Positions 4,273 through 63,466 of a stretch of DNA of 64,000 bases are shown here, in pieces. This DNA is from Lama glama (taxonomy: Eukaryota). Location of the stretch: contig CM052816.1 in NCBI GenBank assembly GCA_028534125.1, positions 16,680,001-16,744,000 on the forward strand, given 5' to 3'. The notes under the pieces are model-generated. The model saw nothing but the letters and a program-made list of their open reading frames with translations, did no database searches and was not told where the DNA came from. Made by a program: the position numbers and the translations under genes. How positions within the stretch are numbered: position 1 is the stretch's first letter; every line of letters starts with the position of its first letter.

Positions 4273-4376
4273 GGGAGGGTATAACTCAAGTGGTAGAGCG
4301 CATGCTTAGCATTCATGAGTTCCTGGGTTCAATCCCCAGTACCTCCTTTAAAAAAAAAAAAAGGCCTAATACCCCC
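4273..4376 (+). mobile_element. tRNA-Ala-derived SINE (Vic-1-like)
   Basis: GGGAGGGTATAACTCAAGTGGTAGAGC (A box)...CTTAGCA...GGTTCAATCCC (B box), followed by an A tract. Confidence 0.85.
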
Positions 4377-7300: not shown

Positions 7301-8388
7301 CTTCTAGGTTTTGAGTAGAAACGTCAACGGAAATAGTGCTGGTTTTCGAGGCAGAACATTAGCTGACAAACTAAGAGTAACTGTTTTGAGAGTGGAAGGG
7401 CTCAGTAGCCAGTCTGTCTGCTTATAAACTTTGCTGGCTAAGGGACCTATGGAATTTACCACTAGGAGAAAACTTTTAGAGGGCAGGGTCTCATGTAAAT
7501 GAGGTCCCTTTCCAATGCTAGTACCAAGGTGCACATTTGTGAAGTTCATTTTCCTCTATGAAGATATATTTCCAGGCATTTTCAGATTTCAAACATCTGT
7601 AGTTACAAAGCTAATATAGGGGTTTTCTCAACTTTTTGATACTGTTCCCCAAACTGTGCCTCTTCCCTTCTTTCTTATAAGTCACTTGGCACATAAGCCC
7701 ATTTGACTTGACACTACCCATCTTTTTCATTTTTTCTTGACAGCTTCCACTGGACGGTGGACACGTGAAATTACTATGCAAGCTCAGTGATTAGGGGAAA
7801 GTTTAAATGCTTCTGGCAGTCTTCCCAGTTTCTCTAAAGCCCCCACTCATTTCATTATGGCACTAATACTTGTAATGATTAAAATTGTCACAGCCTTTAA
7901 GGGCATCATGATCTATAAGAATCTCAGGAAGTAACTCTCCTGCAGACTCAGCTATCAAGAAGAAACAGTTTGTAAAATAGTATACTTCTTAACATGCTTT
8001 GGCTCGTATCAGATCAGTTCTTACCTTCAAAATGTAAAGTGGCTCAATTTATGATGGTAGATATTATAAGAAAGCCATTAGACCTGGTCAGGGGAGATTT
8101 GAGGCTTTCAGTATCCCATGTATATATGTGTTACACATTTGATTGTGTTCGTAATGCTACTTGTTCTCTATAAAATTGCTAATTTAGTTTTTTAAACATT
8201 AAATTATTAAGTTTTATTACTGAATTTATTATTAATTTAGTAAACTCATATTAGCATTTCTCAGGAAAACTTTGATTTTCTCTTAAGCTGTCAAGAGACC
8301 TTAAAAGGAGTACTGATTTTTATGTAGATACTTAAGTAACAGCTTTGAGATATAACTTATATATTGTAAATGTTACTTCTTTTTTCTA

Positions 8389-8496
8389 GGGGGCGGTAAT
8401 TAGGTTTATTTATTTTTTAGAGGAGGTACCAGGGACTGAACCCAGGACCTCTTGCATGCTAAACATGTGCTCTACCACTTGAGCTACACCCTCCCC
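8389..8496 (-). mobile_element. tRNA-Ala-derived SINE (Vic-1-like)
   Basis: Reverse complement of the same head plus the AAATAAACCTAATTACC tail. Confidence 0.85.
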
Positions 8497-8499
8497 ACC

Positions 8500-9070
8500 C
8501 TTTTACTCCCTTTTTTAAGTGTACAATTCACTGTTTTTTTCATAGTTCTGTAATGATCTAATTTTTAAACATTTTCTTTAACCCCAAAAGAAACCCTCAT
8601 TCTGGTTACCCAGTCCCATCCCCCATTCCTCCTTGGCAGTCACTCTCCTTTCTCTGTTTCTGGGTTGCCTGTTCTGGATATTACACATAAGTGGAACTAT
8701 ACAATGTGTGATCTTTTGTTACTACTTTTAACTGGTACAATGTAAATAATGTACCAACTCTATTCCTTTAATCGCTGAGTAATATTCCATTGTATGGATA
8801 ATACCACATTTTGTTTATCCATTCATCAGTGGACATAGGGTTTTTTCTACTTCTTTACTGTTATGAATAATGTCTCAGTGAACACCAGTTTTTGTATGTA
8901 CACAGGTTTTCATTTCTCTTGAACATATACCTGCGAGTGGAATGGCTGGGTCATACAGTAACTCTGTTTAACCTTCTGAGGAACTGCCAGGCTGTTTTCC
9001 AAAGTATTGTACCATTTTACATTCTCAGCATTGAATAAGGGATTCAGTTTCTCTGCATCCTGTATCTTGG
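8500..9070 (-). mobile_element. Old L1 (L1M-type) 3' fragment
   Basis: gctgagtaatattccattgtatggat...ccacattttgtttatccattcatc...gaggaactgccaggctgttttccaaag; the L1 start probably extends upstream of the adjacent SINE. Confidence 0.75.
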
Positions 9071-9339
9071 AGAAATGTCTATGCAAGTCCACTTGATCTA
9101 GATAATCTAATATTTCAAACAGTAAAGTTGAGAATTCATTGAATTTGCATTTCCTAAACTAAGAAGAGAGTCAGAGATGAGAAAAGCACCTTAAGGAATT
9201 CAATGAAAGGAACCACCTAGAATGAACTCACCAGATGATTCTACTGTGCAGCTACAATTGAGAACTGCTGTTTTAAGAGAAATATGTTTTAAAATTTTTT
9301 AAACATATCAATAGATGAACTATTTCATAGGTGTGTTTT

Positions 9340-9800
9340 GTTTTCTTTTTTCTTTCTTTTTTTTGTGGCAAAATACACACAACATAAAGTTTACCATCTT
9401 AACCAGTTTAAGGGTATGTTTTAGTAGTGTTGAGTACATTCACATTATAATCATTCATCCATTGGTGGACATTTGACTGTTTTGATTGATATAATTGTTG
9501 CTGCTATGAGCATTAGTACACAAGTATCTAATGGTTCTCAGCTTTCACTCTTGGGTATATATCCAGAATGGAATTGCTAGATCCATTGCTATGTGGTAAT
9601 TCTATGTTTACTTATTTGGGGAACTGCCATGCTGTTATCCATAATGACTATACCATCTAACATCATCACCAGCAGTACATACGGGTTCCATTATCTCTGC
9701 ATCCTTGCCAACACTTTTTTTTTTTTAATAGTGGCCATCTTACTGGGTGTGAAGTGGTTTTGTGTTTTGATTTGCATTACCCTAATGATAAGTGATGAAT
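9340..9800 (-). mobile_element. Old L1 (L1M-type) fragment
   Basis: aaagtttaccatcttaacc...gggtatatatccagaatggaattgctagatc...ttgatttgcattaccctaatgat. Confidence 0.7.
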
Positions 9801-10531
9801 TGGTATATTCTGGTAATGTAGTTTTTACATTTGCTTCAGGTAGAACTAAGAATATTGAAATGAAGTATTTCTTAACTGGTGATGCTAAAAGATCTTGAGA
9901 ATGTAGGTAAAAAAGATGTGGCTCGCATCAATACTGAGGTTAGAGAGAGGTTGGTGGCTGCTCAGAAGGGACCTCCCATGTGACAAGGCCTTGGTGGCAT
10001 CTTCCATAGTTCAGACTTTGGACCTGGTTTTTAGTTGTAGAAAACTTAAATTTGCTTGGGTACCTAGAGTTGATCAGACTCTCAGTGCGTTGCTCTTTTT
10101 AAATGAAACTTACAAGCGATTAATACATAAAATACATTTAGAGATACATTATTTAGGGTGTGTGTGTGAGTGTGAAAGACAGATAAGCAGAGATTTCCTA
10201 ACTGGGTATTTGTGTGGCTCCCAGGCTCTCATTTCCCATTATTAGAGTACTTAGGATACTAAATTAATGAGTATAAATTTACATGGTGTCTGGAATTTTA
10301 AAAAGGAAGAACAAGATACTAAATTGGCACTTCATCTGGACTTGGAAAGACTTGTTGCATTGCCCTGTGATGGCATCACCCTCTGAAGAACCACTAGATT
10401 GATTCCAAGCCTCTGCCATGGACTTACGGTCAAATTCCAGCCTGTTGTCACACCCTTACCAAAGCTTCTCTGTTTGTCCTTGGAGGATGAGGTGTTTGCC
10501 ACCCCCCCCCCATAAAGTGCCTTATTTCTTT

Positions 10532-10651
10532 TGGGTGGGGGCAGGTAATTAGGTTTATTTACTTGATTATGTTTAGAGGGAGTACAGGGAGAACCCGGGA
10601 CCTCCTGCATGCTAAGCACGCACTCTACCACTTGAGCTGTATCTTCCCCAC
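10532..10651 (-). mobile_element. tRNA-Ala-derived SINE (Vic-1-like) with target-site duplication
   Basis: Flanked by taaagtgccttatttcttt (10513-10531) and taaggtgcctcatttcttt (10652-10670), 17/19 identical. Confidence 0.88.
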
Positions 10652-10893
10652 TAAGGTGCCTCATTTCTTTACTTATTACATAGCTAATATTCATTCAAAT
10701 TGTTGAGCACCTACCATATTCTGAACACTAGTCCTAGTTTTGGTACACTTTGATTACACTATTATAGCTTCTACCTTCACCCACTTTGAGAGTGGTTTAT
10801 ATCTACTATTTTAGGGGTATCTCACTCTTAACACCCTTTACTAATGATAAGCATGAAATAAGCTCTTTACTTATGTAGTACTTGAACTGCTAA

Positions 10894-11151
<258 letters not shown>

Positions 11152-11482
11152 TGATGCTGCCATGATACTTTTGGTCACTTGTGTTTTCTCCACCCAGTCC
11201 CTTTGGCCTTGGAAAATTTAGTCTTTTTTTTTAGTTATTTTTTGAAAGTTAAGTAGTAGTTACTGTTCTTAAAAGAGTAAGTCTTCCCTTTTAAAACATC
11301 TCAAGAAGTTGTTTTCAAATTAAGGAGAGGATTCTGCCTGAGAGATTTACAGATATTTGTGCTTTATTTAAATTATGATTTAAAGGGGCAGGGATGATAG
11401 ACTGTGGGAACATAACATGTCTTATTAATTGAGGAAAATTAGGTGTGGATATAAGTAGAGAAATTGTTTGTGTTCTTTGCAG

Positions 11483-11622
11483 TACCTCCAAATGGCCTGG
11501 TTGTTTACTGTGGTACAATTGTAACAGAAGAAGGAAAGGAAAAAAAAGTCAACATTGACTTTGAACCTTTCAAACCAATTAATACATCATTGTATTTGTG
11601 TGACAACAAATTCCATACAGAG
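11483..11622 (+). CDS. ETF1: eRF1 coding exon ([11 protein letters not shown]...[10 protein letters not shown])
   Basis: tttgcag| ... GAG|gtaagt; 140 nt; contains the YxCxxxF motif (YLCDNKF). Confidence 0.97.
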
Positions 11623-13625
11623 GTAAGTTCAAGCATAGGATACTTTCATGACCCCAGAATAAAACCCTACATGTTTTCATTGGATGAGGTGTCAGGGGTA
11701 TACTTAGGAGTGCAATTTCTGGGTCATATGATAATAATGTTTAACCATTTCAGGAATTGCCAGACTGTTTCCTAAATAATTGTACCATTTTATAAGGTGG
11801 GCTATTTTCAAAAATAAAAGTTTACTTTTTTTGTGACACTGAATGATACCATTCAGCATGTTTGAGGAAAGTGCTAAGCTGGGTTTGAAGAGCTAGTTAC
11901 AAGCAAAAAAATAATTGGCTACCTGATCTCCATTTCTCCCTGTATATCCATGATACTTGCCTGTATTTCTTTCAGCTCACAGATTGTAAAATCTTTACTA
12001 GCAGGATTATAAGAGCTTTTTTCCCCCCATGAAACTTTTGAGTGACAGAACTGCCAGAATATGATTAACATTAAGGGTGGAAAGGAAACCTCATTAGAGT
12101 GACCTAAATCAGTCAACAGTAGAACAATCAGGAATTCACAGCTGGCTCCTAGTTCAGTCTCTTGCCTTTCATCGACCTAGGGGAGAACCTCTACAGTGGA
12201 ATTAGAACTGACATTTGTCGACACAGTTTACAATGGATGATTTTGCTAACTTGACAGGAAGTTCAGCTCCAGCTGGATCTTGATCGGTTGCATAGCTGGT
12301 AGAGACTGATTTTCTCTTGGCTGTCACAGCCTCCTGGCAAAAGCTTCATTGGGGAGGCTCTTTGCCACCTTCTCCCACTTATCTATAGCTGATTTGATGA
12401 AAGCAGATTTGAATCTTGTTGATTTAAGTAGTACCTGGTACTCGTGTTACCTAGTTTTTGTTTACTTATTAAGTTAGCTTCATTGGTTTTTCTAAACCTT
12501 AACTCCTATTCCAAGGTACCATTTCATCTTGCTAGCTTTATTTTGGCTTTAACTGGTTACAAATGTGGCATACTGAACGACACAATTTATGTCCTATTTA
12601 ATCAGGATATTTATGCATTCTTATGAGGGATAAGTCTATTCCCTACGCATGGGCATGTTGAAAATGTAAATTAATCAAGCTACCTAACAGGTTATCACGA
12701 TAAGGTAAAATTTTTAACGGGGGCAATATTCATGTCTTAATGCCAATTATTAAGCATGGTTTGGTTTAAGAGTGATGCTTAATGATTAATCTGCTTTCTA
12801 GTCAATTCCTGAAGGAATTATTTTCTCCCTTAGTTAAAATGGAAAGGGTAATAATTTCTTGGTTCTCAAGAGGCTGCCGCCTAACAGTCACCTACCAAAT
12901 CTATAGTATTTACACTGCATCATGGAAACTTGTGCCCATTTTTGTGGGTCCCAGGACTATTTTTTATTTGCTCTCTCAGGAAGCAGAAATACAGGGATAT
13001 AATGCTAACCCAGAAGGAGCATTTTCCCCACCTTATAATACCTTTCAAAACTCAGTTTTATTGAGTTTTAGATCTTGATGTCATTAATGATGCTCAAGGC
13101 ATAGTTAAATGAAACATTTCAAAACTGGAAGATCTTTTTATAAACTGTTCTGGGTTTTGTACTTGATGAGCACTCCTACTCTGGAATTGATTTACAAGAT
13201 ATTCTTACTTGCTGTAGTGAATACTGCCCTTTAATGCTAGGGTTATTAATGGTAACAAGAAAAATCAGCTTTTGGAGGTTAGATTTTTAATTTGAACGTT
13301 ATGTTCTCTAGACCACTATCAGTCTAAAATCAAGGACCTCGGAATAATTTGAGCCCTGTAACTCTGTATTAGGTTTGTATTCTGTGCCCATGTCAGGTTG
13401 GTAGAAAGGTATATTGGTATTGTTGGTTTTCTCCTACTTCATGTTCAGTTTTATTTATGAGTTACATATTTATAGCTGAAGTCTATAAATTATTCCATGA
13501 TGTAGTACTAGAGAAAAACCTTTCTATAAGTGGGTTGAGAGGGCTTGTATATATTCTTTCAGATTTTGTCTTGATCCTAGCAAAGCTCTGACATGTATTA
13601 TGTGGTACCTGTGTTTGCTTTTCAG

Positions 13626-13764
13626 GCTCTTACAGCACTACTTTCAGACGATAGCAAGTTTGGTTTCATTGTAATAGATGGTAGTGGTGCACTTTTTGGC
13701 ACACTCCAAGGAAATACAAGAGAAGTCCTGCACAAATTCACTGTGGATCTCCCAAAGAAACATG
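13626..13764 (+). CDS. ETF1: eRF1 coding exon ([14 protein letters not shown]...DLPKKH)
   Basis: ttttcag| ... ATG|gtaatc; 139 nt; phase matches neighbouring exons. Confidence 0.97.
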
Positions 13765-14021
13765 GTAATCTAGAAAGAGAACATGAGCACCTTTGCTTTG
13801 TCTACCAATAAGGAAATAGTATATGGGGGAAAGTAAATCCAGATGATGGGAGAAGCATCATGAAATGACTTAGTGGTGCCTGTGGCTCTTTTGACTAGAG
13901 AATTAGTAGACACTCTAAAAATGAGTGATAGTGTTAAGGGAATAGTGATTTTCCTCTTTGTCCTTTCCTTGGGGAGTAATAGCATGATTATGTAGTTTTT
14001 AATTAACAAGGCATCTTGTAG

Positions 14022-14267
<246 letters not shown>

Positions 14268-15034
14268 TAGGTGCTCCATTATATAAGTTTCTAGGTGGGA
14301 GTAGGTGAGTTGTCTGAGTAGTGAGACATGCACATCTTTTTTTTTTTTTTTTTAACTTTTAAGTGTTAAATTCCTTGTTAAAAACCTAGCTCTGAGCTGG
14401 TAAAGTTCCATGTGTATCATTAGAAATATTAGGAAATATTTCCCCATATCTTTCTGGGCTTTTTCTCTTTTGGAATACCCTTTTTTTTTTTTTTCAGGAT
14501 CTTGCTGGGCCCTATGTTAGCCCCTGGTTTAGTGGGTTGCCATAATTGGCTTTAAAATGGAGTTTGACTTCAAAGAAACCCAGAGCTGGTTTTTCCTGTC
14601 TTTTTCTTACTTTCCTGGAGGTAGTAATATAACAGTTGATTAAGTCTAAAGCATTTAATCCAGAAAGCTCTTTTGGTTTGTAACGTAGGCTCAGTGTAAC
14701 ACATTCCCAAGGTGTTCCTCTGGAGGAGGGGTAGTAAGGAGCATTGTGGTAGAAGGCTCAACAGAGAAGCTGTATTTAAATTCTACCACCTTATATGGCA
14801 GGAGCCAGTAGTTCCTCCTTTCCTTCACAGGATACTTTTTTTGTGTTTAATGAGTTAGCCTTTTATAGGTCTAACGGAATGTGTAATATGGTTGTCCGGG
14901 GAAGTTTATCTTGGCACTGTTGCTCACTGAGACTTGCTCATGAATAGATTGGGCTCCTCCCATATGCTTCCTCTGTATACCTCACTGGTCATATTGCTGA
15001 GTTTAGTATGCCATTAAGAGGTAATGGGTCTTGA

Positions 15035-15271
<237 letters not shown>

Positions 15272-15714
15272 TAAAATTTTTTTGTATATATATATATATG
15301 TACATGATTGTATGTAGGAAACAAGACACTGAAAAGGTAAAAGAGGAAGAGTTAGCATCTTTATTAAAATATTTCTCAGTGGAATTATTATTTATAATCT
15401 TCCTTTAGTCAGAGGTCTAATAAATGTGTTTGTTTTTACCCTTTGGCAATAGGAACCAAATTTCAGTCTTATTTCCCCATATTAATTATCCTTTGTAATA
15501 GAGTGATGAATGGAGAGCTCGAATTAAAGCTTAATGGGGGCATTGTTTGGCTTTGTTTTCCATTTAACACACACATTTCCAAGTGGTTGTGTATTTGGCC
15601 CAAATGTTAGCTCTTGAGAGTTACTTTCTGGAGCCTAAACTATTGGTATGATTTCTTGCTGACCTTTGGCACTTCTACTTACTCATTTTTAAGTTGACTT
15701 TTTTCTCTCTCTGA

Positions 15715-15963
<249 letters not shown>

Positions 15964-16383
15964 TAAGATTATTATTTGTTACTGACTTAAGTTTTCAAGA
16001 AACCTGGGGTAGAGATATGGAAAAGGTGGCTGATTTCAGGAGCAACCACAAGGCAGATCTATACCTTGTTACTTACTCTTTTCAGTCTGTATCCTATTCC
16101 TGCGTAGATTTTTCTGCTTGAACTGATAAATGTCTGCTTAAGATTGTTAAATTTTTTTAGGACAGGGGCTGTATCTTAAATATCTTTGGTGTTTACTCAT
16201 GATAGGAACAGTGTACCTGGTAGAGATTCATTCAGTGCATGTGACTAATGAGCTTATGAAAAGAAGGTTGATAGAATGAGTTCAAGATCCCTTTCATCTA
16301 ACCTAACTCATCTCATGGGACTTAACACCTGTTTGTAGTATATGAGAACCAGGTTAACACATTTTTTTCCCCCAATACTACAG

Positions 16384-16448
16384 AGGAGAAAATTCTCTAT
16401 CTAACTCCAGAACAAGAGAAGGATAAATCTCATTTTACAGACAAAGAG
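16384..16448 (+). CDS. ETF1: eRF1 short coding exon ([22 protein letters not shown])
   Basis: actacag| ... GAG|gtatgt; 65 nt. Confidence 0.95.
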
Positions 16449-17099
16449 GTATGTGATTATTTACTTAGTTTGGTGATACATGCAAGGAAATATAATATAA
16501 ATCCATACCTTGGAACATTGGCAGTGTATAGTAGTATCAGCCTTGGGAAACCAAACCTCGTACTTGTTGGCTGTGGGAAGTACCAGAAAGTGATCAGCTC
16601 CTATCTGCCATATACTGATCTGATTCCAATGAAGGTGGCCAGATGATGATTACTCTGGCTCCTTATTTTTAAAGTAATTAAACATGCTCATCCTTGAAGT
16701 AGCAAAGAGGAAGATTTATACCTTTCCTGTACTGTGAAATCTGTGCTGCTTTCTTCACTTACTTTTACCAGCTCTCCTACTGAAGCAGCTTTTGTAGGTT
16801 TGGCCTAAATGCATCCCCACAGCTTAAAATGTCACCTGCCCAACACAGATCCCTTTAATTGGTAGCTTCCTCAAATTCTGAGTTAAAGGACTTTGGCTTT
16901 TACAAGGCTGCTCCAAAAAGCAGTTATGTCTTGTCTCTTCTCAGCTGCTGAATGAGTGCTGCCTAGAGACACTTTATAACTGCTAAGTGTAGGCTGACAT
17001 TCCATTACAGAGGCTAGAGCATGGGGAGGAAGGTTGTTTGAAGTAATCAGAATTTCTGTGCTGTTGCAATTATGTCGCCAGAAATCAGAATTCACTTAG

Positions 17100-17363
<264 letters not shown>

Positions 17364-17572
17364 TAGCAAATCAGAAAACTAAAAGCCAGGGTCTCAGGCC
17401 TTGTCCTTTCCTGACTATCCCAAAATAGTTACTTCAGGGGAGGTATGTTCATTATCCACTGAGGCAGGGGACTGAGGCAGCATATGGCTGCAGGTTCACT
17501 GGTTAGAACTTTTTTTTATCATCACCTTTGCTTTCTATAATCCTGCAAAATAAATTAGGCTTCTCTTCTTAG

Positions 17573-17716
<144 letters not shown>

Positions 17717-19945
17717 GTAGTCGACATGGGTCCGGCAAAACGTGCCTCACCCTCCAGCATCCAACCCAAGGAGCATACCCGTGGTGGAATCCAAACAGAT
17801 CCCTGCCTTACAATTGGAACATTTCCAGAACTTAATCCATGAGCATTGGATATTGAAAAGAAAACCGAAACAAAACCAGACCCAACCCTACACTTTGGTT
17901 TGTCATGGTGTCAGCGCAGCAGCCTACAACTAAGTTCCTAAATGCCACTTTGGACTAATTTAAGAGAATCCCAGTTTTTACTTTTACTCAATGGTGAAAT
18001 TGGTTGCTCTTGTATTTTATGGGAAAAAAAAGATTTTTTTAACCTTCATACATAGAAGCAAAAATACTTTAACTGCTGTAAACCTTCAAAAGTTAATAGA
18101 AATGAGATCATACTGGTTTGTTTCTTATTTTGATTGGAGAAAAATTAAACTGCTGCATTTCGCAGTGACCCATTTACATGGCATTCTCAGCTTAGACTGC
18201 ATAAGAAGAAATATATGTGGTGAAATGTTGGAACCATTTCTCTCTTGGTCTCTTGTTTAATGTTGAAAGGGTGAGCTAATAGGAGGCAATTTCAACTTCA
18301 CTCCCTCACACTACCCCTCCTCTCCAGACTGTCAATTTCAAGAATGCAGATTGCACTGCAAAGTCAAACTGACACATGAAACATTTGGGCCAGTGCTCCT
18401 TCCTTCCATCTGTTTTGCAGGCGCATTTGCACCCGGGGTTTGGGAGCCCTTAGCATCGATTGCTTTGACAAAGGTTCCCATAATCTTAGCCTACTAGAAA
18501 CCAGTTTGGGATGGATACGTGGGGCTTCTGTGCTATTGCTGGGATTGGGAGAAATAAAACATGCAATTTAAGTGGAAGCAAAGAAATTTAAGGAATATTT
18601 TATTTTGCTTGGGTCTGTCCTTGGCAAAAGGGAGGTGGTCGTGTTTTCCTTGTGTTGGATGGCATGAGATTATGTGAATGTTTTGATTTATAAAAAATAG
18701 ACTGCAAGGTTTTTCACAGGAACGACAGACATGTATGATTGCATGTAATTATAAACCCCTGACCTGGTGGGGTTGGATCATCTGTTTCAAATATGGGACT
18801 TAACAAGCACCTCTCATAGGAGAAATTATGGGAGGAGGGGTGGGAAGGGCAAGGGCGGGAAGGGATGGGAACACAGCTTCTGGCACCAAGGACTTAACTA
18901 TGTTGGATCCAAAAGTGGGCCTGGAAACCTGAAGTTTATGCTTCACAGCTGGGCTGTAAATCGGACTTGACCCCAGCTGACATGCAAGGTCGTGGCGTGC
19001 CTGAGGTGGTGACAGTGAACAAAGTGTATAGGACGTGCCCAGTGTTAGCGATGGAAAAAAGTATACCAAATGGACTTTGAAGGACCAAAGGTTTTAAAAG
19101 TCAATTGGTATCACCCCCACACTGATAGGGAGTGGGGTGCATTTGGTTTTCAAATTGGGTACTTTTAACACTTCAGTGCCTGACTGCTGTTCTTCACTGA
19201 CTTGACTCAGTCACTTGTAGCTTTATTGGTCTGAACCAGCTCCTTGTTCCCAGGTTGCAGACCTGCCTATCGTTCCAATAATCCTGTTTCACTTGAATGA
19301 AGGGAGTGTCTTAAATGTAAAGCTTCTGGTTCTCACACTGTACTCTGAGGTCCAAATGACTGTCTGTCGATGTATAACCTAGTGTTTCAACCCCCAGTGA
19401 GAAAAGTCAATTCTTTGGTATTTACCAATGCGGGTGGAGGGGGCTTCACCGCAACAGGCTTTTGCCTTGGGCTCTGCTGTTTGTTTGCAGAACACCCAAG
19501 AGCAAGCAAACATGCTCTCTTCACAGCAGTACCTTAGGGTTTTGCCATTGTAAATGGGTCTAATGTGATATGACAAGACCAGAGAAATTGGATGTAAATT
19601 TACATTTTTTGAATATGCTTGTTTCACATGATACATTTAGGGTATGCAGCTCCTTTTGTAGTTTTTATTTTTACTATTTAAGTTTGGAAATGATGCCAAA
19701 TTTTTGTATTTCTTTAATCAATGTGTTCTTCAGTGATATATATTGCATTATATATTGATGTGTGTATCAATATATACTGATATGTATTACACTTACACAT
19801 ACAAACACATAAATAAGAGGGGGTGAAAACCGTAGCCTTTGCATTCTCTATAGCCTCTACAGAGAGATCCTAAGCAGCGAAATCTTGGTGTTGTGATGTA
19901 CAGAAATGGAGAAGAGTATTAAACCATATTTAAGAATATACTTTG
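17717..19945 (+). other. ETF1: ETF1 3'UTR with proximal AATAAA (18553-18558) and distal ATTAAA (19918-19923)
   Basis: Apparently repeat-free sequence after the stop. The distal hexamer is followed by GT-rich ctttgtgtgc. The 3' end is approximate. Confidence 0.75.
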
Positions 19946-22900
19946 TGTGCTTGAGATTCTTTAGGACTGCTCCTGAGAAAGGTCTGAATTGTGGAGACAG
20001 TGTGAGTGAGCTCTCCAAGGCATGTGTCAGTTTCAGCTTAGTTATTAACTTTTCAGCCTTAGATTTAGTTGTTTTGTTCTACATTTGCCTATGAAAGGGT
20101 ATATGGCAAAGGATATCTGAGGTCACGACCACAGCATTAATGCCTGAGGAAGGAGGTTCCAGATGCTGGGGCCAAACTAATTTTTCTTACTCTGCATGCA
20201 TGCTAAAGGGAAGACTGCCTCCACCCACCCACCCCATTTTTAAAGGCATTTCAAGTATGTTATCCCACATAGTTTAACATTCCATGGAGGTCGATGGTGC
20301 TTCCCATTTTACAGATGATGAAACAGGCCAAAAGAGCTTACGTAGCAGCCCTTTTAGTGGCGAAGCCAAATTTTACCCCAGGCCTAATTCCAAAGTTGAT
20401 TCTCTTTATCTGGTTGCCTTTGAGTCAGAAGAATAGTCCAGATGGAAGAGCAGAAGCCTCCCACTCTGATCCTGCATACCAGGCACTAGATAGGAGAGCA
20501 GTAACCTTGATAATCAAGAGGCTGGCCCAGTGGAGCGGTCCTTCTGGGGTGTATCAAAACAAGAGGATTTTTTGTTTATAGTTTCCGTTCTCTAAAAGTG
20601 GAGGTACTTAGAGAGCGCCTTCTATGTGGTAGTTTAGGAAGGCTCATTGAAGAGCCAAGATGGTACATGATTTGCTTTCTCCAGATTTAAAATACAATGT
20701 TTAACAGTAATGGACCCTTTCCTGTCACTTGCTTTTTCAGCATACTTTTGCCCAGTCTGATTTAGATGGTAGCCTTGATGAAACCCAGTCACCCTCTGGG
20801 AGGGGGCAGGCATGCTCATGCATGGTAGAAGTGTAATTTTTCCTCCTGATGCATCCCTAGATGCTGTTTGAAGTCAAAAGTTGGAAGGCAGCATAATGAT
20901 GCCGGATATGCGGGCTGCTGTACTTGCCTGTCTGGGCCTGTAGCACTTGCCATCTTTTGTTCTCTGGCTCCAGTTCTCATGCCATGATGCTTCCAGACAG
21001 GCACAGTGGATTCAGGGCTGAGTGCCAAAGTACAATTTAAGCTTCATGCCAGCTTCTCCCTTGTTGTCAGTTTGAGTGAGCGCCTGCTGAAAGTCCTACG
21101 TGCCAAGTCCCACCCTGGTAAGACTGTGCCTTTCAGGGATACAGGAACTGAGTTGTTGAGGATATGGCTGAATAACAGGCACTAGAGATTGAGGTAAAAA
21201 TAGTTTACCTCCAGGGTTCTCTGAAAACTCTAAACCTGTCTGGGAACTGTTTCAGGTAGAGTCTGAAATTGCTTGGCAGGCTCATCCTGGAGCTCAAGTT
21301 AAGAGCCCAGGAGAGTCAGCTCTGTGGACAAACATCTCTGGTTCTGTCTCTGCCGTTAAGTTTGATTTGGGATTTCAGGTAAGTCCTTTCCTATCCCTCA
21401 GTTTCCCTATAAGTATCAGGAATACTAAATCTAAAGAGCCTTTCCATCTGTAAAGCTATCAGGATACAAGAGGAGCAGATCTGACATCTGACTGGGATAG
21501 AGATCATGCCTGTGAGACCCTGGCAAATTATTTAATGTGTCTGAGCAGCAATTTCCCTACCTGTAACAATGCCTACTCCATAAGGATTGTGGTAGGGATT
21601 AAATGCAGTAAGACATGCATACTACAATGCCTGGCACTTAGCAAGGGCTCAGATGGAAGCTGCTCTGATGATGGTCCCACGGTAACCAACCTCGGTACTC
21701 TGGAAGTGGCCTGGGTGAATTTGCACTGGCAACCACAAGGTGGTGCTAGAGTTAAGGATTCTTGGCTGTGGAAGAAATTAGTTGCTGCTGGTGGGAAAAT
21801 TTCTGACAAGAATTAAGGGGTACCTGAACAGCTTGCTTACCTTTAAAATGTGGAGATACAGAGAAGGCAAACTACCAAAGGAAACAGGGATGAGTGAACA
21901 GAGAGGAGATCCAGGAGTCTCTATCTGGGCTTTGAGCTACCCAATGGAAAAATAATTATGATCACTAACTTTTGTTAAACAGTTAGCCATGTACCAGGCA
22001 AGGCGTTCTATCATGTGCATCATCTCATTTAATCTTTAGAAAAACTGTGGTATATACTGTTTTATATCTCCCTGTCCAAGTTCATAAGTTACTAAGTGGC
22101 AAAAATCTGGAACTCAAATCCTGTTTGGTTCCAAAGCCAATGCAAATGCAGGTCATTCCTCGCTCAAGAAGAGAGAGAACAGTTGCTGACTGCTGAGAAG
22201 ACAGGTGGACACACCTCACCAACACTTGTGCTTCCAAAGACAACCAACAGCTCGGACTGCATCTGGAAGGCACCATCTAGCAGCTCTCCTTCCCCCAGCA
22301 CATACACGTTTTGACTGGTCAGCCCAGCTTAGCTACAGCCACAGTTGAGGATGGATAAAAGGAACTTCTTTGGACTCTGCAGAGGACTCCTATAATCTAT
22401 CCTGCATCTTCAGAGAAGAATGTATACATATAATGGAATTTCTCAAAGACTAGGGCGCCTGCCCCTACACTTAAAAACTATGTCGTCAATAGGGCAATTA
22501 ATGAAACTGGAATACAGACTATGGATGAAAATACTGTATCAATGTTAAATCTCCTAGATTTGTTATCTGTACTGTGGTCGTGTAAGAGAATACCCTTCTT
22601 CTTGGGAAATATACACTGAAGTATCAAGGGGTTTAAAATAAGACATTCATTAAGGAAATTTTTGAAATGTCAAACACAAAAGAAAAATAAGAGCATCATT
22701 TAACTAACATTTTAGGGTCACTGTGAACACCCAGTATAGAACAGTGATAATGAGTGTTTAAGTTCCAAATGATTCACAAGGTATTTAAAACACAACTTTG
22801 GTTTGAGTCTTCATTCAAGTTTGGTTTTTACTCCGAATTTGCGTTTGACTCAGAGGTCAGCATTTAGAAGAGTTAATTCTGCTGCAGGGTTTTTAGTTCA

Positions 22901-24689
22901 GGAGAAATTCCTAATGTGAGTCAGCGAGTAGGGCTGGGGGCTGTGCCTGGGAGGTGGGCCGAGACTGGAAGGAAGAGAGCAGAGGCAGGACCAGGAGAGG
23001 AGCTGCTGTCAAACACCTCAGAGATGAAATCAGCTCTGAAGTTGGTCCAGTGCTGGCTGAGATGAGGCAATATTAATAATAGGGCTTTTGGGGGGACCCT
23101 TGACCCCTAGCTCATTGAGCAACTCTGGGGATGATGGGAAGAAGGTGGAGCTGAACGGCAGAGCCTAAAACCCATTCTCAGGACAAGGGTGTCATTACAT
23201 GCTAGTCCTTTGTCTATGGCCATACCTTTCTATAAGTTCTTCTGCTGCTCTGTTCTTTCACTTTCTAAGGAATCATAATTTTAGTACTTGCAGGGGCCCT
23301 GGACCATACTATTCTAATCCCCTAATTAAAGAGACAAGAAAACTGAAGCCCAGAGAGCAGCATAATGACCTGTCTTGTTCACGCAGCAAATTAGGTGAGC
23401 CAAATGAGTACTTGATGTTACAACTCCAAATTCAGTGCTCTTAACACATGGAGGATCTCGTCATTCTTCATCTAAGCCCTATTCTCCCCCTTGTTGGAGA
23501 CGAGAAAAGGGAGGATCAGAGAGGGTAAGGGAGTGGCCTGAAGCCAAAGACAGAGCTGGGAGGGGAAAGGTGGCCAACATTTAGGTGGGGTTATGAAAAC
23601 TGTTTTGAAGTCACTTCCCTATGAGTCATGGTTGGCTTGAGTGTCTAGATTAACTTGCTTCTCCAGCCCCCAGGGTTCTATATTATCCCCATCTAGGTTT
23701 CCCTTACTGTCAGACTTTGGCTCTGCCACTCTACTGATACCCTGCCTGGGCTCAGCCCACTCTGCTTGGTTCTCCCATCCTCACCCAAAGGAAATTGAGG
23801 GCAAATCCATTTTCAAGGAAGCCTGGAGACCAGGAAAGGAGGGTGGAGACTTCAGAGAGAGGCTCTCCAAGCAGGAGTAGCAAGGTAAAGGCAAGATGCA
23901 GGAATATTCTGCCAGATGGGGGAAGGGAGGTGGGAGCTGAGCTTGAGAATAAGGAGCGTGATGCTGGAACACCTGCTCCAAGTTACAAGCTGTCCAGACC
24001 TAAGTACATTCCCAGCCTAGGCTCCCCAGGGGAGCAGGATGGACCAACCACCTCATGACACAGTACCAACTGGAGGGTCTGCAAAGGGGGACTCTATTTA
24101 AGGCAGGAGGTCACCTGAGCAAGAGGAGTTGCATTCCTGTGCTCAGGGCTAGAGGCCCTCCCTGGCAGCCCTGTCTAACTCGGATTCTAAAGAGACGTTA
24201 GCACGGAAGGGGCTCTGCTCCTCTCTGAGTAGCTGAGCAAAGGCCCCAAAAAAACTGTCTCCTCCAGCCTCTGTCTGTTTCCACAAACACAGGCCATTGC
24301 CACTTCTATTTCTTAAATTGGACTTAGGTTAACCCTGGTCTTGTTCTGTCATTCAACAAGCATTTACAGACATTTCCTGTGTACTGGACCCTGCACAAGA
24401 TACTGGGATACAGTGGTTAACAATGCAGTCACTGTCCTTGCCCTTCAGCATTTATGCTCCAGCAGGGGAGACAGCAAGAAAAACAATGAAGAGTGAGGAG
24501 TATTAGAGCATGAGGGAAGGGCACCACCACTTCATCTGGGGGTGCCTGAAGTGCCTAGTGAGCCAGGTCAGCCTGGAGAGGTGAGAGGTGAGTTTGGAAA
24601 GGCAGATGTATTGGTTCTGATTGGACCCAAAGGCCAGGAAACCACTCAGATTTCAGGACACTTTTTTTTCACCCTGGTATTTTTGCTGT

Positions 24690-28489: not shown

Positions 28490-29669
28490 ACGACCAGAGA
28501 CTAGAAGCCTGTGATTTTATTCTGGACCAAGCCCAGAAGCTGCTTGGTGCTAGAAGTCACCTCCCTGGTATATTACTCAACTCTACTCCCAAGCTCTGAA
28601 GTAAATTCCTCTGCCTCACCTGAGGAAGAACAAAGGCTCACAGGTTGGTCCACGCTGCACTTCTGGAAGAGCTGAGGAGCGGGTGTTCAGGAACTGCTGC
28701 TGGTTTGGACTCTGCTGAAGCCTGGTCCCTCTCTCCGACCTTTGCTCATCTCCCAGCAGATAGATCAGGGTAACCACGGGGCTGAGCCAGGTTTAAGTCC
28801 CTGGAGGTGGTGTACGAAGGCCTGTGGGGGCTTGCTGATTTCTGCAGCGGATAAACCAGAGTTAGCAGGCTGAGCAAGGGAGACCATTGTGGGTGGTGGA
28901 AGCACCCAGTGGGCACTGCTCCAGACCTCAGCCCCACTGCAGGTGTGTACCTGCCCCAGCTCTGCCTCCCCCGACCCATTCCTTCCAACTTTCCATACAG
29001 AGTCAAACGATTCATGTAGGGTTCTGGGGTTCATGAAGCTCCAGACCACAGGTAGCGTAGCAGATGAAGATGTTAAGGGCTAGACCTAAAGTCGGGGGCC
29101 TCTGACCAAGGTGAAAAGGCACCGGTGACTAGCCTGACAACAGAGTCCTTTCCCTGTGCCTCCTCACTCAGGTGCAATAGCAACTCTCACTTACTGAGCC
29201 AGGCACCAGGAATGCAAAGATGAGTAAGATCAAATCACAGTCTAAATAAATAAACGACACATAATACTGTGTTAAGTGCATCACAGGCCTACAGGGTGGG
29301 GGTGGGAGGATTTCCAGATGGCCAGACGTCTGAACCAAGTGAGGGGTGAGTAGCAGTTCTATTAGAATGGTGTGGGAAGGGCATTCTAGGCAGAAGGGAC
29401 AGCTTGTTCGAGTAAAGGCAGGGAGGAGCGAGAAACAGCAAGCAGGCAGGAAACCAAGGAGAAATACCGAAGGCCGACTAGCAAATACAAGGGGAGGAGC
29501 AGTGAGGCGAGAGAGTAGGCCCTCACACCACGCTTAGGAGTTGGGCTTTAGGCCTTGGACTGGTATCTCCAGCAAAGTCTGCTGTGCTTAGAGAATTAGG
29601 GGGAAAAGTGGGACAAAATATGAAACCGGTGGGGGAAGTGGGAACCTCAGCCCTTCTGGGGACTCCCAG

Positions 29670-30320
29670 GTCCGCCTGTCCCGCGTTTACCTCAGCCAGG
29701 CCGCGCCGCGTGTTCGGCCCCGCCGCCGCCCCCTCCTTGGCAGCGGGTCCCCTGGCCGCCGGCTCCCGGGCGCGGGCGGACCCGGAGGGCCGAGCTCCCG
29801 CCCCCAGCCGCCCGCGGGCCGCCTGCCAGACGCGCCGGGAAGGAAGCGCCTTGTATGGGCCTCGGGCAGAGAGGAAGCGCCTGCTAAGGCCCCGGGAGGA
29901 AGCGCCATATATGGCGAGGGGCGGGCCGGGGGCGGGGAGTGCGCCGGGGATGGAGGCCGCTTCCGCCGCCGCGAGGCGGAGCCGCGCCAGCCCTACCCCC
30001 ACCCCGCGCGCGGGCCTTGGAGGAGGGGACGCTCTGGCTGCGGCCCGCGACCCCTCCGAACGCTCCTCACAGCGCCCCGCACAGTTCCCTCAGTGCCACA
30101 GAGCCCCCGGAATTGGGAGCAGAGGGGGTGTCCATCCTGGCTTTGACGCCCGATCAAGCCGAGATGGATTCCTGGCCCCGTGCACTCGCTCTGTGACCTT
30201 TGGGAAAACCCATTCGTCTCTGAGCCTCAGATTCCTCTTCTGAGCGATGTGGGGATAAAATGAGAGGATGCCTGTCAAGAACGTTCTGAAGCGGGCCAGG
30301 CCCGCAGAGGCAACGCATTC
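29670..30320. promoter_or_regulatory. Orphan intergenic CpG island with tandem ETS-CArG units and GC boxes (probable enhancer)
   Basis: Abrupt CpG-rich block. AGGAAGCG-CC(N6)GG occurs three times in 29841-29914, followed by GGGGCGGG boxes. Confidence 0.75.
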
Positions 30321-30685
30321 ACCCTAACAATTGTATGTGGCGGGGTGAGGGGGGCGGTGGACAGATGTTCCCAGTACCCTACTGTGGCCCTTTATCCTCT
30401 GCCTAGCCGATTTGGCGCCTGGGGAGCCTGAATGAAGGGCTATATGGAGCTGATGCCTTCAGAAGAGATCTTTCTAGAAGAAAATAGATACCTTAAAGTC
30501 TAGAGTTTTCCCTTCCAAGCTGCGGGGTTCAGACAGAGGGGGTTCCAATCCCAGCTTTTCCTTAACCAGCTGGTTGATGCTGGGAAAGCTACTTATCTTC
30601 TCTGACTCTCAGTTCCCTTACTGATAAAATGAGGATAATAATTATTGATTGGCAGGATTGTTGTGGTAATCAAATGAAATAGGGC

Positions 30686-30759
30686 GTGTGTGTGTGTGTG
30701 TGTGTGTGTGTGTTGTCTAACACGGAGTAGATGTGTGTGTGTTGTCTAACACGGAGTAG
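30686..30759 (+). repeat. (TG)n microsatellite with adjacent 29-bp-period tandem duplication
   Basis: tgtgtgtgtgttgtctaacacggagtag at 30703-30730 and 30732-30759. Confidence 0.9.
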
Positions 30760-41470: not shown

Positions 41471-42200
41471 AATAGTGATAATAATAATCAACAACAGTAA
41501 GTACTGAGGAAAATGCACTTATGGGAGGGCTCCTTGAAAAAGGAGGTGAGATAGATTTACTTGGATCTGGGGAGCTGAGCCACCACCTTGACCTAAGAGA
41601 GCATCTCAAGTAAGCTTTTCCTCAAAAGGCTTTCCTGGGTTCTAGTAATATGAAGAGGGAGACAGGAAAAAAAAAAAATCACTGTATACGAAAAAAAAAA
41701 TCACTGAAGTGGAGGGCTAGATTTGCTATACGGGTGCAAAAATCTTATTAGCACCCAAAGGCTTATGGGTAAAATGTTGAAATCTTATTTGTACAATACC
41801 TTATTCTTTTAGACTTGGCCTCATTCCCCTTAGGACCCCGGAGATCTCACTCTGGCCAACCTTCCCCTCTTAAACTGCATTAAGTGTGGCTGAACCAAGG
41901 GAAACAGCAGAGGAGAGAGGGGAACATTGGAGGGAAGACCTCTGACTCTACTCTACCCATCCCTGACTCCATTTCTTCCTGGGGTTGGGTAGCTGTAAGC
42001 AGAAGCAGGAAGCACACCTCAAACCCAGCCTGATAACTAGACTGAGCTCTGCCTTTCTGAGTATTTAGAATCTTTCAAAATGGATGAGGCTGAACGTTCC
42101 TGAAATTCAAGAGAAAACAGTACCTCTCAGGTACTAGGAAGAAGAGTCAGAGGTCCTTAGGACCTAAGCTCTTTCTCTTACTTCAAAATCTAAACCAGTT

Positions 42201-43049
42201 TTTTGAAGTCCTAGCCACAGCAATCAGGCAAGAGAGAGAAATAAAAGGGATCCAAATTGGAAAAGAAGAGGTAAAAGTGTCACTATATGCCGACGACATG
42301 TTACTATACATAGAAAACCCTAAAAGGTCCACACAAAAACTACTAGAGCTGATTNNNNNNNNNNNNNNNNNNNNNNNNNNNNNNNNNNNNNNNNNNNNNN
42401 NNNNNNNNNNNNNNNNNNNNNNNNNNNNNNNNNNNNNNNNNNNNNNNNNNNNNNNNNNNNNNNNNNNNNNNNNNNNNNNNNNNNNNNNNNNNNNNNNNNN
42501 NNNNNNNNNNNNNNNNNNNNNNNNNNNNNNNNNNNNNNNNNNNNNNNNNNNNNNNNNNNNNNNNNNNNNNNNNNNNNNNNNNNNNNNNNNNNNNNNNNNN
42601 NNNNNNNNNNNNNNNNNNNNNNNNNNNNNNNNNNNNNNNNNNNNNNNNNNNNNNNNNNNNNNNNNNNNNNNNNNNNNNNNNNNNNNNNNNNNNNNNNNNN
42701 NNNNNNNNNNNNNNNNNNNNNNNNNNNNNNNNNNNNNNNNNNNNNNNNNNNNNNNNNNNNNNNNNNNNNNNNNNNNNNNNNNNNNNNNNNNNNNNNNNNN
42801 NNNNNNNNNNNNNNNNNNNNNNNNNNNNNNNNNNNNNNNNNNNNNNNNNNNNNNAGAATAGATAAACAAGATTATACTGTATAGCACAGGGAAATATACA
42901 CAAAATGTTATGGTAGCTCACAGAGAAAAAAATGTGACAATGAGTGTGTATATGTCCATGTATGACTGAAAAATTGTGATGAACACTTGAATTTGACATA
43001 ACATTGTAAAATGATTATAAATCAATAAAAACTGTTAAAAAAATAAAAT
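42201..43049 (+). mobile_element. 5'-truncated young LINE-1 (ORF2 RT fragment plus 3' end), interrupted by an assembly gap
   Basis: Open frame [50 protein letters not shown] before the gap. After the gap is an L1-type 3'UTR ending aataaaaactgttaaaaaaataaaa. Confidence 0.88.
42355..42854. other. Assembly gap (500 N)
   Basis: Run of exactly 500 n. Confidence 0.99.
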
Positions 43050-45044: not shown

Positions 45045-46252
45045 CAACCACAGCTATTTTATTTTCCTTTTAATTTTTCTGAAGGATATACACCACATAT
45101 CCCATGGGCAATAAAGCGCATTCAATGTGTTTATAAGCCAAACAGTCACTTTGTTTAAGCAAACACAAGTATAAAGTAAAATAAAACCACAAAATAATGA
45201 ACTGCATGTTCATAACATACAAAAATTGCCGCCTACTCAGTAGGTAACTACAACATTCCAACTCCTGAATATATTTATAAATTTACATTTTCAGTTAAAA
45301 AAATAGACTTTTGAGAGTTCAGATTTTGTTTTAGATTTTGTTTTCTTACATTCTGGAGAACTGAGGCTCAGCTCAGCCCTCTTCCTTATTTTGCTCCCAA
45401 AGCTTCCCCCGGATCATCACTCCCTGCCCCCCTTAAGGCTAGAGGTGAGCACATCCCTCACAATTGCACATGTCAAGCCATCAGCAAGGCGCATCACACA
45501 AAAGGCACCAAGACGTGAAACTTTTTAAACCAAAAGGACAAAAAAACACCACTTTCCAAAAAAAAGATGAAAAACTAAACCATATTTTGCCACATGTGAG
45601 AGTACATTCGGGCGATATTTACAAAAAGGTTAACAGAACAACACTCTGACACATGCTCTGATTAATACCGAGAACTGCTGTTTCAAAAAAAAGCTTCAAA
45701 AGTAATCGTCACAGCATCATCACAAGATAAAGGATCACCATTGGTTTGCTTGGCTTTTTTTTTTCCCCAAAGTGAGGACCTAACTCCAAATAATATGATA
45801 GAATATGCAAATTATCTTCACATCAAGAGTACCCCGGGAAAAACAAAATCCATGGCACAGACACTGTACAAGGGTACAGGGCTGGGCTTTGGGGGACCCA
45901 AACCCCATTTAGCCAACTTGATTTTCTAGCATTGAAGGGAGCAAGGGGTCAGGCATACAATGGAGATGATACTGAAATGATATATTCCAAATCCATGCAA
46001 ATCAAGTTCTTTGGATAGAAGTGAAGAACTTGGACATGGCTGTTTCAGGCAGCTGAAGTCAAAGGGAGTAGGAACTGGGGAGGAAAGGGAGCCAGGCAGA
46101 AAGGATTGCTGGCCAACAGACCTTTCACGGTGACCCCTGGGTCGAGTTGATTTGGTTCTGAGAACCTCCATCTGACCAAAGAGGAACCCCCTCCATGGCT
46201 ATCTCCTCCTTCTGTCCTTTAAGTCTCTTGTGTTTCTTTTTCTCCTTTCCCT
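45045..46252 (-). other. EGR1: EGR1 3'UTR with polyA signals AATAAA (45058-45063) and ATTAAA (45069-45074)
   Basis: AU/U-rich sequence on the - strand; hexamers read as tttatt and tttaat on +. The cleavage site is approximate. Confidence 0.8.
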
Positions 46253-47608
<1,356 letters not shown>

Positions 47609-48298
47609 TTACTGGAGAGCAATCACAGGAGGTGGAGGAGGACCCAAGCGGCCAGGCAAGAGGTCGGCCGGGCTACCATTGACTCTTGAGCTCGTTAATA
47701 ATTGATAGCAGCAGATTGCAATGTTCCTGGACCTGCTCCAGAGGCAGAACCCATTTCAACAACAGCTGACGCAAATACAGAGAATCCCCCTCCACTGCAG
47801 CTCCCCGAGCTCCGCAGCGGCGGCTGTGCGGGCTAGGGATTCCCGCCGGCACCCCCTCGGCCGCGGCTAGTGCGCGCCCCCTACCCCGGGCTGCTGGGAC
47901 AGCCCTGACCGCAGATTACGGCCCTATCTAAGGGACATGCGGCAGGCAAGACAAGCCTTTCTGGAGGGGGAGAGGGAGGGGTCGCAGCCATACCCGTCAA
48001 AACAAGCCCTCCTTCCTCACCACCCACCCACGCAACCCCACAGCTCTTCATCCAAAACAAAAGCTGGCTCTTCTGAGCATCGCTAAGGATAAGGAGGGTG
48101 GAGGTGGGGGTGGATGTCCCCAGGCATCCCTCTAACACATGACCCTGGGGATGCGAGGAATGGAAGGGAAACCCCACTTGCATCCCTGAGGTTCAGGAGC
48201 ACTGCTGCGGTGAAGGGAGAGCTGCAAAGGCCGTGGGGAAAGACTGGACTCCAGGAAGGTGGCGAAAGGGCTAGCCCTCGGCATAGGCCACAGCTTAC

Positions 48299-48596
48299 CT
48301 GCGGTCAGATGCTCATAAGGCTGCTCGCCCGCCTCCCCCTGAGGGTTGAAGGCGCTGCTGCTGCTGTTGCTGCCGCCCCCTCCACCTCCACCGCTCCCGC
48401 TGCTGCTGCTGCTGTTACCGCCGCTGCCCTCGGGGGCCCCGGGAGCACCGAGGAACTGGGGAGCCCCATTGCTCAGCAGCATCATCTCCTCCAGTTTGGG
48501 ATAGTTGTCCATGGTGGGCGAGTGAGGAAAGGAGCCGAACGGGTCGGAGATCTGCAGCGGGGACATCAGCTGCATTTCGGCCTTGGCTGCGGCCAT
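48299..48596 (-). CDS. EGR1: EGR1 exon 1 coding part (MAAAKAEMQLMSPLQISDPFGSFPHSPTMDNYPKLEE...YEHLTA)
   Basis: Characteristic EGR1 N-terminus with a Ser/Gly tract; donor GCAG|gtaagc on the - strand; 298 nt. Confidence 0.98.
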
Positions 48597-48889
48597 CCCG
48601 GATTGGCGGGCTGGAGAGCTGCTGTTGGGGCGGGTGGGCGCAGCCCGGGGCCGGAGCTGCGGGGGACACTTCTCAGGGGCCTGGCCAGGTCACATGCGGG
48701 GCGCGGGGCACACTGTGGAGAGCTCAGGTGGGGTCGCTAGGCTCGCCCTCGCCACCGGCCGGTGTAGATGCGGCGCTGCTACCAAGGCTGGGGTAGGGGC
48801 CGGTCCTGCGGCGGCGGAAGCTGGCGGCGGCGGCGGCAGCTGGCGGCGGCTCCCCAAGTTCTGCGCGCTGGGATCTCTCGCGACTCCCC

Positions 48890-49020
48890 AGATCCGCCTC
48901 TATTTGAAGGGTCTGTAACGGCACTGGCCCGCCTTCGTCGTGACGTACATGGCCATATTTGGGAAGCAGGAAGCCCTAATATGGCAAGACCGGCCGGGAG
49001 GACCCGGAGTGACGTGAAGC
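48890..49020 (-). promoter_or_regulatory. EGR1: EGR1 proximal promoter: TATA-like AAATAGA, CRE-like sites and two CArG boxes with ETS cores
   Basis: tctattt 48899-48905; TGACGTAC 48941-48948; CCATATTTGG 48953-48962; CCTAATATGG 48975-48984, with GGAAG cores between the boxes; TGACGTGA 49010-49017. TSS expected near 48870. Confidence 0.9.
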
Positions 49021-49240
49021 CTACTCTCCGCGAGCCGTAGGCACTGCCATCCCGCACCCCGGGGCCCGCGCGGGCACTCGCACTCTGGGCGCCCAGGTCT
49101 GTAGAAAGCCTAATACTCAAGCCGCAGCTGAGGACTCCCGAACCCCAAGCTGCCCAGTAGTTCCCGGTGTTGCCCCCGCCCCTTCCTCCCTCCTTCTTCC
49201 CTCCTCCTCCTTCCCTCCGCCTTCTTCCCTCCTCCCGGAG

Positions 49241-49343
49241 CCGGAAGCGGCCAGGCCATATCTGGGCGCTCCAAATAAGGCGCTGCCCAAATAAGGGTTT
49301 TTCCGGCGGGGGATCCTTCCTGCTCCTTATTTGGCGTTTCCGG
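49241..49343 (-). promoter_or_regulatory. EGR1: EGR1 distal serum-response element cluster (SRF CArG plus TCF/ETS sites)
   Basis: CCGGAAG 49241-49247; CCATATCTGG 49256-49265 (1 mismatch); CCAAATAAGG at 49271-49280 and 49287-49296; TTCCGG 49301-49306; CCTTATTTGG 49325-49334; TTTCCGG 49337-49343. Confidence 0.92.
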
Positions 49344-63081: not shown

Positions 63082-63150
63082 TCAAGCTGAGTCGCCCCCT
63101 GCAGAGGTCTTCTTCTTGGGCCGGGTCTTCAGCGTCTTGGAGGCCAGTGG
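63082..63150 (-). CDS. REEP2: REEP2 last coding exon (PLASKTLKTRPKKKTSAGGDSA*)
   Basis: cccacag|CCA; TGA at 63084-63082; 69 nt. Confidence 0.92.
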   Translation of the reverse strand, partial: PLASKTLKTRPKKKTSAGGDSA

Positions 63151-63235
63151 CTGTGGGAAGGACAGAGGAAGACAGAGGGCTCAGCCTGGAGCCACAGTCC
63201 CTCCCCATTTCCCCATGCTCTGGCATGGCTCTCAC

Positions 63236-63366: not shown

Positions 63367-63466
63367 CTGGTTGGGGGAAGAAAGGAGAACAGGGGTGTCT
63401 GGGTGTCTTTCTCACCTGGCCTCCTTGCCCTCATGCCCTTCTGCCCATCCCTGGGCCCATCTGTAC

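Follow-up and report, generated by a model that had tools for sequence, protein, structure and literature searches.

A CpG island with three ETS-CArG units downstream of EGR1 is probably a distal serum-response enhancer with counterparts in mouse and human

Here, we describe a CpG island between the convergent genes EGR1 and ETF1 that carries three ETS+CArG units, and we propose, with a probability of roughly 0.7, that it is a distal SRF/TCF serum-response enhancer, pre-loaded and ERK-gated, and the counterpart of an element about 26 kb downstream of EGR1 in mouse and human, orthology being assigned by position. The original prediction, made on the same 64-kb stretch of Lama glama DNA (hereafter the window), was of a MAPK-responsive distal EGR1 enhancer or eRNA promoter. 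Published mouse and human data at the matching position support an SRF/TCF-bound, MAPK-responsive distal element that contacts EGR1; its status as a new candidate is lost, because enhancer data have already been published for the matching element in both species.

Results

Protein searches confirmed the identity of the two genes that flank the island, EGR1 on the minus strand and ETF1 on the plus strand, which converge across a gap of about 25 kb with the island inside it:

45045..48880, minus strand: EGR1, two exons, ATG near 48596 and stop near 46253, with ends inferred from TATA-like and AATAAA signals
10894..19940, plus strand: ETF1 (eRF1), the exons that fall in the window and the 3' UTR, stop near 17716, ATTAAA at 19918, 3' end inferred
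29526..30375, no strand: CpG island of 850 bp, GC 0.67, CpG observed/expected (o/e) 0.78, 75 CpG

The island had been placed about 19 kb from the EGR1 transcription start and past the 3' end of the gene, and this is where it lies: 18,970 bp from the inferred start, 15.1 kb beyond the EGR1 end and about 10 kb past the end of ETF1. The distances to EGR1 are approximate, since a 500-N assembly gap at 42355-42854 separates the gene from the island. A frame at 42094-42854 runs into this gap through a very AT-rich stretch (GC 0.19 for 42001-43000, Ns counted) and, as we take it, resembles LINE-1 ORF2; a Pfam search with 87 aa of this frame gave no match. Frames at 62897-63614 on the minus strand contain short stretches that resemble terminal exons, presumably those of REEP2; they gave no Pfam match, and the mammalian gene order REEP2-EGR1-ETF1 fits them. 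Nearer to the island, at 30703-30759, two 100% identical 29-bp copies stand head-to-tail directly after a GT microsatellite (30686-30713), and may stem from recent duplication by slippage or be an artefact of the assembly.

Measured against the usual thresholds for a CpG island (longer than 500 bp, GC above 55%, CpG o/e above 0.65), the island passes in length and in both compositional values. It is the only CpG island between ETF1 and EGR1, with no other CpG-rich 500-bp window from 19 kb to 46.5 kb. It is a candidate orphan island, the EGR1 start being 19 kb off and the ETF1 start not seen nearby; three GC-rich stop-to-stop frames of 184-245 codons run across it, and a one-mismatch EGR binding site is present at 29770. 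In a word search of sequencing runs (24 rows), all 98 sampled words were found in 14 runs of DNA or of no stated type, which carry five organism codes and of which 11 are flagged as a possible source, 6 RNA runs shared 0.06-0.29 of the words and 4 runs shared none, which is evidence for neither transcription nor conservation. Could the island instead serve as promoter for an unannotated, stable lncRNA or for a short gene that acts independently? Its make-up is promoter-like, and a 5' splice-site-like motif at 30343 (+) is followed by the first polyA hexamer only at 31840. We nonetheless hold this to be very improbable, as no TATA match was found in 29400-30400 and as the human counterpart of the island, described below, is listed among the FANTOM5 enhancers and its RNA behaves like a short-lived transcript (10.1101/689968).

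Within the island, the following elements are clustered:

29841..29858, plus strand: unit 1, ETS half, 3-nt spacer and CArG-like box, with 1 non-A/T base in the core
29872..29889, plus strand: unit 2, same ETS half and 3-nt spacer as unit 1, CArG-like core with 2 non-A/T bases
29897..29914, plus strand: unit 3, same ETS half and 3-nt spacer as unit 1, perfect CArG at 29905-29914
29903..29916, no strand: 14-bp perfect palindrome, found by self-match and centred on the unit 3 CArG
29919..29935, plus strand: two GC boxes of the SP/KLF type (GGGCGG), directly after unit 3
29958..29965, minus strand: fourth ETS site of the same variant as in the units, inverted and without an adjoining CArG, found by motif scan and absent from the original prediction

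The three ETS+CArG units that had been read from the sequence at 29841, 29872 and 29897 are all present, each with an ETS core GGA(A/T) and a 3-nt spacer (3/3 units), and their CC-N6-GG boxes begin at 29849, 29880 and 29905, in each case 3 nt past the ETS half. Compared with the CArG consensus CC(A/T)6GG, unit 3 is perfect, unit 1 has one mismatch and unit 2 has two, as expected from the claim that an invariant ETS half precedes a CArG that varies from degenerate to perfect. The 8-base ETS half common to the units occurs exactly three times in the 64-kb window, always in the island and on the plus strand, and across the 25 kb that separate the ETF1 and EGR1 3' ends no CArG but that of unit 3 is perfect. 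GC boxes likewise follow the units, with GGGCGG at 29919 and 29930; four more at 29731-29813 bring the number to six within about 130 bp of the unit cluster. Of the statement that the units are "identically phased", the part that concerns the ETS-to-CArG spacer stands (3 nt each), whereas the part that concerns helical phase does not. Helical phasing was rejected because the CArG-to-CArG spacings of 31 and 25 bp correspond to 2.95 and 2.38 helical turns. The palindrome at unit 3 places a hexamer resembling the YY1 core motif on either strand, overlapping the CArG edges, and a motif scan marks putative YY1-type sites there.

How far is this arrangement from chance? We shuffled 470 bp of the island 20,000 times with dinucleotide composition preserved and scored composites as GGA[AT], a spacer of 2-5 and at most two core mismatches. 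No composite was found in 19,660 shuffles, one in 318, two in 22 and three in 0/20,000, and a composite with a perfect CArG arose in 4/20,000. A motif-blind control is a much weaker test, as some 10-mer occurs at least three times in 150/5,000 shuffles (3%). What departs strongly from chance is therefore the motif content and not the mere fact of repetition. Window-wide, the generic composite scan returned 11 rows, three from the island, three from the EGR1 promoter and five from elsewhere, and only four composites with a perfect CArG, namely unit 3 and three EGR1 promoter sites. Perfect CArG boxes without an adjoining ETS site also lie in AT-rich DNA at 14540 and 14789 (250 bp apart, in an ETF1 intron) and singly at 210 and 8299; these are probably due to chance.

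The motif make-up of the island is typical of its class, because TCF-associated SRF sites tend to have poorer CArG matches together with Ets and SP1 motifs, and many peaks contain several CArGs (Esnault et al. 2014, PMC4018493, accessible parts). Judged from this pattern and from the CArG consensus, unit 2 is probably weak or non-binding for SRF. Graded SRF affinity across the three units is accordingly a prediction from sequence, in which unit 2 may bind SRF hardly at all.

A natural comparison for the island is the EGR1 promoter in the same window:

48953..49341, minus strand: EGR1 promoter SRE cluster, six CArG or CArG-like boxes

As in the island, an ETS site stands a few bases from a CArG and does so in several copies; the c-fos SRE, a single unit with a 2-nt spacer, likewise has an ETS site a few bases from its CArG. 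The promoter differs in having five perfect CArGs, against one in the island. The island, in turn, is distal and apparently without a gene start of its own, and its units run head-to-tail at 25-31 bp with a single ETS variant. The outermost promoter CArG (49334-49325) is preceded by GGAA with a 3-nt, CG-ending spacer like that of the island units, and the window contains seven copies of the motif GGAA[AG]CG, of which four, one of them inverted, belong to the island, two to the promoter of EGR1 and one lies at 55378. A 14-mer that includes an ETS site is common to the island (29959-29972, +) and the EGR1 5' UTR (48821-48808, -), and is not significant against shuffles. This 14-mer prompted the idea that the island descends from an ancient inverted duplicate of the promoter and 5' UTR of EGR1, which we rejected, since 37-145 of 300 shuffles reach the score in four tests and the blastn E-value is 0.38.

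Upstream of the promoter SREs, a consensus EGR binding site is found at 49512, which we take to be the known autoregulation site. Still further out, 4-7 kb upstream of EGR1, a GC-rich block at 53000-56000 contains a weak composite (54189), a CArG with one mismatch (54744) and the GGAA[AG]CG copy at 55378; upstream enhancers of human EGR1 are mapped to roughly this region in a review (PMC13086562, accessible text).

The repeated pattern raises the question of how the units arose, which concerns origin only and is independent of function. The original prediction held that they were built by local triplication of an SRE, here of about 25 bp; the alternative is separate selection for one ETS+CArG pattern. 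The four non-core bases around GGAA are identical in 3/3 units, and chance agreement of the GGAA context has P = 0.00025 (215 contexts from GC-rich parts of the window), or 0.002 given GGAAG (91 contexts); the units also form a repeat family, D1, whose members are 71-83% identical to unit 1 across 24 nt. Outside these columns the resemblance fades. The flanks agree in 2/7 columns on each side (4/14) and the cores in 2/6, and Tandem Repeats Finder reports no array at the island at score 30. In addition, GGAA[AG]CG recurs in the EGR1 promoter, elsewhere in the window and inverted in the island itself, and tandem copying cannot explain those copies. The shared ETS and spacer columns (4/4) speak for triplication, and the flanks, cores and missing array speak against it; it is unproven because the EGR1 promoter uses the same ETS pattern with a 3-nt spacer, and we would put it at slightly worse than even odds.

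In mouse, the position of the island is occupied by a distal intergenic peak at chr18:35,046,340-35,047,906, whose summit lies 26,366 bp away from where Egr1 starts and which is, in the accessible tables, one of only two rows assigned to Egr1 (Gualdrini et al. 2016, PMC5179500). The peak is flagged as SRF-bound, TCF-enhanced, Elk-1-bound, DNase-positive and Hi-C-linked (PMC5179500, Tables S1, S3 and S5). SRF reads drop from 247 in wild-type fibroblasts to 39 in the TCF triple knockout, Elk-1 reads amount to 33 versus 4 for the empty vector, and normalised SRF is flat under TPA (310, 218 versus 189, 270), with SRF and Elk-1 present before stimulation (PMC5179500). The likeness to the island lies in the shared gene interval and in binding of the kind that the island motifs predict. 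Scaled to the EGR1-ETF1 gap, unit 3 has a relative position of 0.603 here and the mouse summit one of 0.598, and at this syntenic position the island provides the only CpG island and the only perfect CArG of the gap. In absolute terms the two differ, with 26.4 kb from Egr1 in mouse and 19.0 kb here, and they are matched by position alone.

For human, the enhancer at chr5:137,827,710-137,828,119 is listed as the FANTOM5 "EGR1 enhancer", cited there to Arner et al. 2015, and NET-CAGE shows that it is transcribed simultaneously with the EGR1 promoter after heregulin (10.1101/689968, accessible text). It resembles the mouse element in lying downstream of EGR1 at about the same distance, and it is paired with EGR1 and induced by heregulin. 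By the hg19 EGR1 start, it presumably lies about 26.5 kb downstream of EGR1. In the accessible text it is defined by CAGE alone (10.1101/689968). A related class comes from the "rapid", ERK-dependent enhancers of immediate-early genes, which have high CpG content, pre-bound SRF and Mediator and MEK-dependent eRNA, and which include two of three Egr1 enhancers (Tyssowski et al., 10.1101/146282); like the island they are CpG-rich and SRF-type, and since the accessible text gives the two Egr1 members without coordinates, the island may or may not be one of them.

Other sources bear on the element more loosely, if at all. An EGF-responsive enhancer adjacent to EGR1 is mentioned in the legend of Fig. 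1D of Yue et al. (PMC5666678), and Table S2 of that paper, on EGF-induced eRNAs, has no row near EGR1. FGF23 is reported to open a distal enhancer of EGR1 located in the interval from EGR1 to CTNNA1, which is given by cCRE ids and is not equated here with the island (10.1101/2024.05.24.595014). No mention of the element was found in the accessible parts of PMC7806227, PMC5371733, 10.1101/163113, 10.1101/585125 and PMC12865816, and no matching coordinates in the text and four supplement files of PMC5364370. Taken together, the island is very likely the counterpart of the mapped mouse and human elements about 26 kb downstream of EGR1, a match drawn from position.

Does the island drive EGR1, or does it fire alongside it? 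A bound and transcribed, promoter-like SRF/TCF island could be largely dispensable, activated by ERK in parallel to EGR1, with the promoter SREs responsible for EGR1 induction itself. In keeping with this, the EGR1 promoter here has six CArG-type boxes; so is the mouse promoter, where SRF reads (1437 in wild type, 460 in the TCF triple knockout) are about six times those of the distal peak (PMC5179500). The human eRNA appears simultaneously with EGR1 transcription, not earlier, which fits parallel activation (10.1101/689968), and the authors of the mouse study warn that Hi-C linkage does not predict regulation (PMC5179500). Against this, the ordered grouping of motifs inside a CpG island, at a place that mouse and human share if the elements are orthologous, suggests selection, and in mouse there is direct Hi-C contact with Egr1 (PMC5179500). 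We consider it rather unlikely that the element is dispensable.

The Hi-C data, at 10-kb resolution, link the mouse peak to Etf1 as well as to Egr1 (PMC5179500), and ETF1 might be the main target, or part of a shared hub tying translation-termination capacity to mitogen signalling. The mouse peak is the SRF peak nearest the Etf1 start (44.4 kb), Etf1 is scored as TPA-induced, TCF-dependent and Elk-1-rescued (PMC5179500), and here about 10 kb separate the island from the 3' end of ETF1. However, induction of Etf1 hardly depends on TCFs, its intronic reads rising from 2370 to 6982 in wild type and, with the TCFs knocked out, still from 3365 to 7080. Egr1, by contrast, is no longer induced in the knockout (4084 to 23708 in wild type, 734 to 595 without TCFs; PMC5179500). 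The case for ETF1 as the main target is weakened because its intronic reads still double without TCFs, and we regard this reading as quite improbable.

Discussion

ERK activity is routinely followed through EGR1, and accounts of EGR1 induction usually point to the SREs of its promoter. How could a distal island contribute? Under our preferred reading of the island as a distal, pre-loaded and ERK-gated enhancer, an SRF dimer would occupy the perfect CArG of unit 3, and also unit 1, and ELK1, ELK4 or ELK3 on the adjacent ETS site would help SRF to bind. Unit 2 and the inverted ETS site would mostly add ETS docking, and the GC boxes and CpG richness would keep the island open. The ETS sites have A, not C, ahead of GGAA, and A at this place makes a weaker ETS variant than C. 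With such a variant, TCF and SRF may stabilise one another's binding, which may make the element respond to ERK more than to Rho/MRTF. TCF occupancy would disfavour MRTF, in line with the TCF/MRTF competition that is a general finding in mouse fibroblasts (PMC5179500). ERK would then phosphorylate the pre-bound TCFs, and Mediator and Pol II would arrive, as in the general mechanism described for TCF phosphorylation (10.1101/146282, PMC5364370, accessible parts). Short eRNAs would be synthesised simultaneously with EGR1 mRNA, and a looping contact with the EGR1 promoter may raise the size or the reliability of the EGR1 burst, with ETF1 as a possible second, weaker client.

A more elaborate possibility, which we think unlikely, is that the units form a dose-reading device combined with an ETF1 hub. 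CArG quality goes from perfect to one and then two mismatches while the TCF docking half is fixed, and the units would fill stepwise through TCF-SRF cooperativity, with MRTF kept off the weak boxes and YY1 competing at unit 3. If this were true, the strength or duration of ERK signalling would be converted into EGR1 burst size, ETF1 would be raised and the immediate-early response would be tied to translation termination. The island would also offer a natural 75-bp affinity series for dissecting SRF cofactor choice.

What is new in the distal enhancer that we favour is limited. The SRF/TCF element class is textbook, and if the positional match is right, as in all likelihood it is, the element itself has already been catalogued in two species, in ChIP, Hi-C and CAGE tables. 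The three-unit layout may be undescribed: a search of accessible papers and supplements returned no description of the three units or of the element's motifs, and within the same scope no deletion or CRISPRi test of the element and no reporter. A 2026 review lists EGR1 enhancers only to about +7 kb in its accessible text (PMC13086562). At the mouse distal site, loss of TCFs reduces SRF 6.3-fold, compared with 3.1-fold at the promoter, about twice the dependence (PMC5179500). The three-unit layout would account for this stronger TCF dependence, if the units are conserved.

In conclusion, the island between EGR1 and ETF1 is probably a distal serum-response enhancer of a known kind. Its three-unit layout names the exact bases to edit, and thereby extends the account of a known element in a small but useful way; it does not amount to a novel type of system.
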